64,000 bases of DNA from Atractiella rhizophila (taxonomy: Eukaryota), in assembly GCA_021432655.1 (NCBI GenBank), contig MU271248.1, forward strand, positions 9,176 to 73,175, given 5' to 3'. The position numbers and the translations under genes were made by a program. Every line of letters begins with the position of its first letter. Position 1 is the stretch's first letter. Of the stretch, positions 28,639 through 31,335 are shown piece by piece. The notes under the pieces are model-generated. The model saw only the letters and a program-made list of their open reading frames with translations. It searched no databases and was not told where the DNA came from.

Positions 28639-29266
28639 ATGTCTACTCGTGCGGTTACCTCTTCTGGTCTCCTCTTCTCCAGCTTTCTTTATATCTTACC
28701 GGAAGGACACTTTTTTGATGGGCTCAGTATATGGTGGACTTTCCTTCTTTTTTGTGCTCGTAGGTATTTTTACGTACGGTTACATCCCTTTCTCTACCAT
28801 TACTCTGCAATCTTAGATTGGGATTTGTTGCTTCAGAGGTGTAGGCGAGACCTGAATTAGTCCCTCGCACTGTCGTCTCTTGAAAGCGGCGCTCTAATGT
28901 CAAGTTTATCATGAAGCGTGGCGGTACGTCAACACGGCTCAACTCACTCAGGCTCACTGGCACAAAATGTACACTGAGGTTTTCGAACTCGCGACATAGA
29001 GGTCTACAACGGCACCGCCTACTAGAAAGTACTGGCAGTATGCATGATGGATGATGGGATTGTCCGAAGTGCTCCAAGGATGGAGACAGGTTACTACTAC
29101 GTATTGATTAATCCGGCAGACTGAGTCGTCTTCTCTGCGCTGCGACTGACGTAGTTTCACGTTTGAGGGAAGTGCTGAAGTGCCGCCTCCGTCTATAAAA
29201 AGGCTGCACTGGCATCAGATACGACACGCTCTCCTTTCCGAGGTCCTTAGATCTCGAATTTTCATC

Positions 29267-31111
29267 ATGCAACTTGCAACTTTGCAAGATGAATCTGATA
29301 GGGTCGCTCACCCGCAAAGAATCAAGTTGAAGACCTCCCAAATCTTTGATCCTTTCTTGGGCCAGTTCCTGCACAACAAGGTTATCAAAGTCGACGTCCA
29401 GTCTGGCTTGATCGTTGCGATTTATGACGGCAAAGACGACGAAGAGGAACCAAACTGCCAAATCGTGGACTTGAGTAAGGATGGACAGACCGTTCTGCCT
29501 GGTTTCATCGATACCCATGTGCATTTGTCAGCAGCATTTCCTTTCCCAATACATCCTGGTTGAAGCTGAACGAAGAGCAGGGTACGTATGACCCAAGCAC
29601 GGTACGTAGATATTCACGAGTCCCGGTTGTAGCTTCTCCATCCATTTGCCGAGGCCGCCTGGGAGGTCCAAGTAACCCAAGAATCCATCGTGGAACGTAC
29701 CCTTCGAGCCGCAAATCATGCTCGAGCAACTCTCCTCGCTGGTTACACGACCGTTAGAGATTTGGGAAGTGAAGGCGCGTACGATTCGGACATCCACTTT
29801 CGTGTGCGAGTTTATCTATGTCAAACTCTGTCTGCAACTTCTGAAAGGGGAAACAGAACTCGCTGCAGAAAGGTCTGATCCCTGGCCCCAGAATGTTCGC
29901 CGTTACGAGAGGTATTGTTGCAACGGGTGTGTTCCCTCCTCTCTAGAACATGGCAATCTGAATAATAGTCACAATGCAAAGGTAGCTATGGTCCTAAAGT
30001 AGGTAACAAGTGGGACGATGTTAATGGGACCCTGGGAGAGCTGCCCCATGGTGCCGAAGTTGCAGATGGTGTGGACAAATGCCTGAAAGTGGTTAGAAGG
30101 CAGGTTGGCGCAGGTGCCGACATCATTAAGATTTGTGCGCGTCTGGATTATTTTTCCTTTATTTATCATTGACAGATCATCCAAAGACGGTGACTATCGC
30201 TTTCGCTCTCGAATGGTCACTGGCAACCCAGCCATCGCAGCAGCGTCATATCCTTTGTTCACAGAACGGGAATTGAGCGCAATGGTCCAGCAAGCACACT
30301 CCTTACTTTGCCCAGTCGCTGTACACACTGACAGTGATGAGACAATCGCTCTCGTTTGTTCAAAGGGTGTGGATACGGTCGAGCATGGGATGGGCGCAGG
30401 AGAGAAGGCCTTAACGGCCCTTGCGAAAACGGGTACAATTTGGACTCCAACTTTGGCAGTACTCGAGAATTATTACAGAGACGCCACATTGGCTATGAAG
30501 CAAGCACAGTCTCAGGTGGATTTCTTAGAAAAGGAGTTGTCAGCCTCACCCAAGGCAGATTATTTGCGACCACTTCTCGTCAACGCTCGAGGAACCCTTA
30601 ATTCGGCTCGTTTCATTCACGAATTCACCCTGAATAGACGAAACAGCCTTCAAAACGGTTTTCGTAACGCCTTGTCGAGATACCCTCACGACATCAAGTT
30701 CTCAACTGGAGGGGATACGGGTCCTTTCACCCATGGACGAAATTCATGGGAGATGCAACTTATGGTTGAACTAGGAGCTGACTGGAAGGATGTCTTGAAA
30801 TGGTCGACGGTTCATGGAGAAGAAGCTTGTCGAGGAGTTCGGAATACCCAGTGGAAGCAAACGGTTGGAGTAGGAAAGGAGAAAGGCCAAAATGCCATGA
30901 GGTTTGGAAGACTCAAGGTTGGGTATTCTGCTGACATCATCGTGAGCTTCATCTATTTATTCGTCAATCTTAAAGCTGAGAACTTTTAAACAAGGCTACG
31001 ACAGGAAACTTGGAGAAGAACTTTCAGAGTGCCGTTCAAGCTTCGTCCATTTCTTTCGTCATGAAAATGGGGACAATTTATAAAATTAATGGTCGAGCGA
31101 CGACAGTTTAA
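29267..31111 (+). CDS. Metal-dependent amidohydrolase (Amidohydro_1 superfamily)
   Basis: TVLPGFIDTHVH, LLAGYTTVRDLG, RQVGAGADIIK, PVAVH, GVDTVEHG, WTPTL, TGGDTGPFTHG, GRLKVGYSADII. TATAAAA at ~29194. Model needs a 1-nt exon at 29581. Confidence 0.9.
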
Positions 31112-31335
31112 GAATGCATCCTGAAATGACAACATATTGTGATGTGACACCTATGTAATGATGAAAAAGCGCAAAGTTGTGAGGCACACCGATCCAGCAT
31201 CAAGCTATTTACCAACATCAAGTACTAATTCGAAGTAGAATCCAAGCCCAGATTGTCCATAAATTACTTCTCATAATATACGCCAAAGAAAGAATCCGTC
31301 CCAAAATCGAGACGGGTATTTTGTAAGACCACCGT

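Follow-up and report, generated by a model that had tools for sequence, protein, structure and literature searches.

The DNA analysed here, a stretch of 64,000 nucleotides from the forward strand of Atractiella rhizophila contig MU271248.1 (hereafter the window), carries an amidohydrolase gene whose reading frame is maintained via an exon of a single base, the G at window position 29581. The gene comprises seven exons coding for 508 residues, and its six introns measure 54, 51, 53, 55, 52 and 53 nt. Its features are given below together with their sources (X1, X2 and X8 denote sequencing runs with spliced contigs).

29267..29526, plus strand: coding exon 1, starting with the ATG and running through His84-Val-His86 into the Leu87 codon, of which it holds the first two bases; X8 contig piece 29100-29526.
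29527..29580, plus strand: intron A, 54 nt, donor GTCAGC, acceptor CAG (29578-80), phase 2; sequence, route enumeration, motif scan, spliced aligner.
29581..29581, plus strand: one-base exon G, third base of the Leu87 codon (TT+G); X8 and X1 contigs, route enumeration.
29582..29632, plus strand: intron B, 51 nt, donor GTACGT, acceptor TAG (29630-32), phase 0; sequence, RNA, spliced aligner, motif scan, route enumeration.
29633..29803, plus strand: coding exon 3, LLHPF ... RATLLAGYTTVRDLG ... HFR; X8 and X1 pieces 29632-29803, 0 letters differing.
29857..29926, plus strand: coding exon 4, preceded by a 53-nt intron; X8 joints.
29982..30134, plus strand: coding exon 5, preceded by a 55-nt intron; X8 joint, cut +1.
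30187..30941, plus strand: coding exon 6, preceded by a 52-nt intron, with His265, His285, Asp395 and a 37-residue insert; joint in X8, X1 and X2.
30995..31111, plus strand: coding exon 7 with the stop codon, preceded by a 53-nt intron; joint in X8 and X1.

Exon 1 ends with CAT GTG CAT TT at 29526, and exon 3 opens with CTT CTC CAT CCA directly after intron B. Between them, G 29581 is flanked on both sides by complete introns with GT..AG ends, a branch-like motif and a normal length (54 and 51 nt as compared to 52-55 nt in the four other introns of the gene). The coordinates of the original prediction (GT 29527-28, CAG 29578-80, G 29581, GT 29582-83 and TAG 29630-32) are all correct, as is its description of both introns as typical in size. 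The donor of intron A exhibits a C at position +3. The motif scan located the branch-like sequences CTGAA, 15 nt from the end of intron A, and TTCAC, 20 nt from the end of intron B; both resemble the branch-like motifs of the gene's other introns, which as short motifs carry little weight alone. Three of the six introns, ending at 29981, 30186 and 30994, terminate in AAG instead of CAG or TAG. At the protein level, the translation of exon 1 agrees with the N-terminus of the public model of this gene (P0001), and a match to Pfam Amidohydro_1 starts in this exon but stays below the cut-off. A PF01979 match was obtained for exon 6 (E 1.2e-5, 25.2 bits, cut-off 25), and a search of longer proteins with exon 6 as the query returned only two matches.

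With the G kept, translation stays in frame, as had been predicted, and yields 508 aa without an internal stop; the consequences foreseen for the other forms were likewise confirmed. Skipping the G, i.e., removal of one 106-nt intron, leads to a stop at codon 101, retention of intron A or intron B to a stop at codon 99 or 104, respectively, and use of the upstream GT donor at 29519 yields DTH-LLHP, which destroys the HxH motif. Enumeration of all GT and GC donors and AG acceptors further identified the GC donors 29531 (intron of 102 nt) and 29534 (99 nt), which give open single-intron frames that keep HxH and add one or two residues. These donors had been missed when the exon was termed apparently obligatory; RNA and homologue spacing uphold this term, but the reading frame alone does not. 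Similarly, the exon had been assigned to the metal-binding motif itself, yet G 29581 lies just past HxH, as the last base of the Leu87 codon, and skipping it spares HxH but truncates the protein at residue 100.

A comparison of 121 fetched proteins showed that HxH and the next His are separated by three residues in 119 of them, the same spacing as in HVH-L-L-L-H of the 508-aa protein and in line with the spacing HVH-x-x-L-H-P for which an alignment of homologues had been proposed. Only P0001 and a model with 13 additional residues deviate. In P0024 (Dentipellis fragilis), 13 extra residues directly follow HxH and probably stem from a wrong acceptor for the conserved intron. The ligands of subtype I amidohydrolases comprise HxH, a carboxylated Lys, two further His and an Asp (PMC11342369). 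All of these positions are present in the 508-aa protein (His84, His86, Lys217, His265, His285 and Asp395), and their columns are conserved in 121, 120, 121, 121, 121 and 121 of the 121 proteins, respectively. According to their alignment positions, the six residues would act as metal ligands. The homologue P0012 matches 17 solved sequences, among them, with E-values of 5e-29 to 2.6e-10, Sgx9359b-type carboxypeptidases (PDB 3be7, 3mtw, 2qs8), ADH3 and ochratoxinase (8ihq, 4c5y). Like these enzymes, the protein encoded in the window holds HxH, Lys, two His and Asp; unlike them, its nearest named relatives are hypothetical proteins of 38-45% identity. Judged from sequence likeness, the product is most likely a binuclear metal peptidase or amidase. 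In a quick tree built with 45 of 122 rows, the protein adjoins an 18-row basidiomycete group (support 90, not starred), which fits ordinary descent.

A degenerate pattern for exon 3 retrieved 70 metagenome loci. An intron at the site is absent in 44 of these, mostly bacterial-looking, and present in 26, of which 22 are distinct; L030, a locus without the intron, is fungal by its other introns. Based on protein likeness, the fungal homologue loci probably belong to Agaricomycetes. All 22 distinct fungal sites with an intron contain a single phase-1 intron of 50-131 nt, located in the codon after HxH. In six of the 22, this intron is 105-131 nt long, and none of these six introns of at least 105 nt contains AG-N-GT. 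The original prediction had suggested checking for conservation of AG-N-GT in related genomes; it proved not to be conserved, a one-base exon being found in 0 of the 22 distinct introns of homologues within reach. The exon looks lineage-specific, which means only that it is absent from these homologues, with no Pucciniomycotina orthologue among them.

Intron positions were compared across 21 of 27 fungal loci, several of them incomplete, after four duplicates and two near-duplicates had been left out. In P0005 numbering, common positions are 89/1 (20 loci), 131/2 (19), 175/1 (16), 219/0 (14) and 222/1 (13), and the introns of the window gene are located at 89/2, 90/0, 147/0, 172/1, 220/1 and 429/0. 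Exact overlap between the six positions and the five conserved ones is zero, and three of five window intron sites lie within 9 nt of a conserved position (p ~0.002, with a threshold chosen post hoc). In 13 of the 21 aligned loci (L006, L009, L012, L013, L015, L016, L026, L027, L030, L047, L065, L069 and L070), a 10-nt exon was observed at the KI-YA-DY motif. Several public protein models show insertions or gaps at this motif, where the window gene has a single intron.

RNA evidence was drawn from four of eight listed runs (X1, X2, X5 and X8), leaving out X3, X4, X6 and X7 (shares 0.05-0.07). These data are assembled contigs, which show the presence of a form, not its level, and from which rare forms are dropped. 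X1 belongs to study P1. For X8, the library is not on record and no study is named; its RNA origin is deduced from absent introns, and it may represent the same material as the genome source. In two of the four runs, X8 and X1, the spliced contigs contain exactly one G between 29526 and 29633, so that the predicted mRNA junction retaining the G is present in both; X2 and X5 do not reach the site. The joint is reported as 29526->29632, with 105 letters skipped, ends GT..TA and one letter that fits either side. At the junction, X8 has a contig depth of 108 with 172 letters on the shorter side, and X1 gives thin support with a depth of 4.8 and only 30 letters. The X8 contig of 1644 nt carries the joints 29526->29632, 29803->29857, 29925->29981 and 30134->30187, its other introns thus also being removed, and the joint 30941->30995 occurs in further X8 contigs. 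The X1 pieces 29389-29526 and 29632-29803 differ from the window in 0 letters and the X8 pieces in two letters over the listed parts. Neither half-spliced molecules, with only A or only B removed, nor an exon-skipped form occur among the listed contigs, which show presence only and drop rare forms.

The RNA contigs also bear on other parts of the gene. Two positions differ from the assembly, owing either to allele differences or to assembly errors: at 29279, X8 has T in place of A, and at 30288, both X8 and X2 have G in place of C. In the upstream region (window 28969-29266), the X8 contig extends 131 letters past 29100 and so begins upstream of a TATA-like stretch at 29194-29201; if colinear, it includes six upstream ATGs, located at 29040-29080, whose frames are 4-26 codons long.

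The public model of the gene, P0001, is KAH8926466.1 from Atractiella rhizophila (Pucciniomycotina). It is identical to the 508-aa translation save for two junction residues and two gaps, one of three residues at HxH and one of 37 residues in exon 6. At the site in question, KAH8926466.1 takes the 29519 donor and consequently lacks one metal-binding His of HxH, which bears out the expectation that gene predictors miss such an exon. In exon 6, the model splices out 111 nt (window 30536-30646); the X8 piece 30187-30877 is unbroken, so that the protein carries a 37-residue insert relative to its homologues. In addition, the fourth intron of the model seems to sit 4 nt too far to the right (window 29927-29985, Val for Ser169), and the RNA favors 29927-29981.

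As the retained base is a G, the RNA alone fits three genomic G's (29527, 29581 and 29632). All one- and two-step routes with GT-AG, GC-AG or AT-AC/AG ends and introns of at least 20 nt were searched. No canonical one-step route leads to the observed RNA, and the two canonical two-step routes both consist of introns A and B side by side, removed in either order; the only single cuts that yield the RNA have the ends GT..TA or TC..AG. The RNA junction is produced neither by single introns from the GT donor 29519 or the GC donors 29531 and 29534, nor by two-intron forms with the acceptors AAG 29575 or GAG 29577. A stwintron (defined in PMC5587772) was rejected, since none of the two-step routes leading to the RNA at this minimum intron length is nested, and recursive splicing at a zero-length AG/GT site is ruled out because 105 and not 106 letters are skipped. 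A spliced aligner that was uninformed of the exon picked it with four of four homologous proteins; the same program invented a false intron in exon 6 that is contradicted by RNA and is therefore fallible.

With high confidence, G 29581 can be regarded as a true one-base spliceosomal exon that results from two ordinary short introns lying side by side, and the G read in the RNA would be base 29581 rather than 29527 or 29632. Introns A and B would each be recognized across their own length (intron definition) and excised in succession, so that the G stays behind in the mRNA, as argued for APC11, for which simultaneous assembly one base apart was considered unlikely (PMC4674806). The retained G would then complete the Leu87 codon and preserve the frame of the 508-aa amidohydrolase together with both His of HxH. 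Prior removal of intron B is the favored, though by no means certain, order because its donor GTACGT is nearer the consensus than GTCAGC; either order leaves a good site in the sequence, TTG/GTACGT after removal of A and CAG/G after removal of B.

An error in the assembly, the alternative that survives best, is nevertheless very improbable. If the real DNA had an extra G at the first donor or the last acceptor, one 106-nt GT-AG intron would yield the same mRNA. There is a single assembly, a G beside a G is a plausible place for the loss of a base, X8 differs from the assembly at two other positions of the gene (29279 and 30288), and the long single introns at six of 22 homologue sites show that one intron of such length can occupy this codon. 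However, the central CAG-G-GTACGT, splitting the stretch into 54 and 51 nt, would then be due to chance and would constitute a frameshifting cryptic exon. In dinucleotide shuffles of the 106-nt stretch with its ends fixed, YAG-G-GTRNG leaving at least ~40 nt on both sides arose in 40 of 20000 cases (bare AGGGT: 547 of 20000). Moreover, the gene's four other introns are all 52-55 nt long. The bin depths of X1 are solved by an unlisted unspliced record at either 29566-29661 (depth 3.0) or 29585-29632 (depth 6.0), as obtained by arithmetic and not from a displayed alignment; no indel is listed in this presumed stretch, which argues against an error on the acceptor side, the first donor lying outside it. 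Independent DNA of the same organism was not present among the 70 metagenome loci, a set that may omit records of the same genome.

There is a slim chance that the RNA comes from some other allele or a paralogue whose introns are arranged differently, the window copy being spliced otherwise (from GT 29519 or a GC donor) or dead. X8 and X1 indeed contain a second spliced copy, ~87-92% alike over window 29300-31250, which is either a divergent allele or a paralogue that the assembly lacks: queries with exon 3, exon 6, P0001, the gene DNA, its 3' end and the surrounding 18 kb found only the window locus there. These own-genome searches are incomplete, as a PF01979 family search listed 18 other matches yet missed this locus. 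The assembly also contains contig pairs that are 94.4-99.7% alike (L075/L076, L077/L078, L080/L081 and L082/L083), as expected if both haplotypes were partly assembled. Such haplotype-like pairs and the second copy lend this scenario some plausibility, but the junction contigs match the window as noted above (X1 in all listed letters, X8 in all but two), and the alternative splice forms break the spacing kept by 119 of 121 proteins.

Least probable of all is one non-canonical 105-nt intron (GT..TA or TC..AG) that takes the G from 29632 or 29527: the aligner reports the joint in this way and both cuts do yield the RNA, but a fully canonical route is available, in X8 it is the junction form that was assembled at full depth, and neither GT..TA nor TC..AG is a known spliceosomal class (the classes being GT-AG, GC-AG and AT-AC).

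For the one-base exon between introns A and B, two features of the locus hint, speculatively, at its origin. The first is a near-repeat around the exon:

29576-29588 and 29596-29608, plus strand: 13-nt direct repeat, 12 of 13 letters alike; repeat search.

Its first copy comprises the acceptor of A, the G and the donor of B, and the second, 20 nt downstream, has CAC for CAG and thus a dead acceptor; such a repeat occurred in 1 of 2000 shuffles, in a test made after the repeat had been seen. The second feature is that intron A lies one base off the conserved intron position of the homologues. It is conceivable, if rather unlikely, that the locus is a footprint of the birth of a one-base exon, in which a one-base shift of the ancestral phase-1 intron was combined with a local 13-nt duplication that supplied the second intron or a rescuing AG-G-GT, in a lineage with mobile, multiplying introns. 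If this were true, Atractiellomycete genomes would provide a natural series for intron shift and microexon birth. Nelson and Syed (PMC12940212) have suggested that a cryptic AGGGT may rescue a base that was lost, and the window data do not separate such a rescue from an origin by duplication and shift.

Among the titles and abstract openings listed in literature searches, none dealt with this gene or with a one-base exon in Atractiella. One-base exons are already known in plants and other fungi. The window exon leaves existing knowledge of splicing unchanged; it adds a Pucciniomycotina example to a short list and corrects a public gene model that lost a metal-binding His. With introns of ~50 nt on each side, the 106-nt stretch offers a compact substrate for studying the order in which introns one base apart are removed. 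Whereas the plant and Fusarium exons are conserved, the window exon is apparently lineage-specific, so that its close relatives could reveal the origin of such exons.

Several known systems resemble the window exon. The original description of one-base exons as very rare is overstated for Basidiomycota, since a long-read annotation of Coprinopsis cinerea contains 13 of them in 13 genes (PMC12230235). These cases share with the window exon a basidiomycete host and short introns (PMC12230235); unlike the window gene, its Agaricomycete-like homologues have one phase-1 intron at the site. In Fusarium, CYP621A P450 genes contain a one-base exon with AG-G-GT (Nelson and Syed, 2026, PMC12940212). The likeness extends to the AG-G-GT core, a G that completes a codon beside a conserved motif, omission from gene models and RNA across the joint (PMC12940212). 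However, the CYP621A exon is common to at least 20 orthologues in an ascomycete genus (PMC12940212), whereas the window exon was found in no homologue within reach and its host is a Pucciniomycotina amidohydrolase. In plants, one-base exons are described for VPS55 (PMC8831610) and for Arabidopsis APC11, where the exon was proved by base substitution (PMC4674806). Both, like the window exon, feature a frame-essential base between two GT-AG introns, for which sequential removal is proposed (PMC4674806, PMC8831610). In contrast to G 29581, the APC11 base is an A, which can be read in cDNA without ambiguity; it is flanked by longer introns, and its conservation extends across land plants (PMC4674806). 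Finally, stwintrons and one-nucleotide intron shifts likewise involve two consecutive splicing steps, an internal junction of the form AG/G/GT and an intron displaced by one base relative to orthologues (Fekete et al., 2017, PMC5587772). In a stwintron as described there, a splice signal of one intron is split by the other and no internal sequence is retained (PMC5587772), whereas the window exhibits no nested route and one base is kept.
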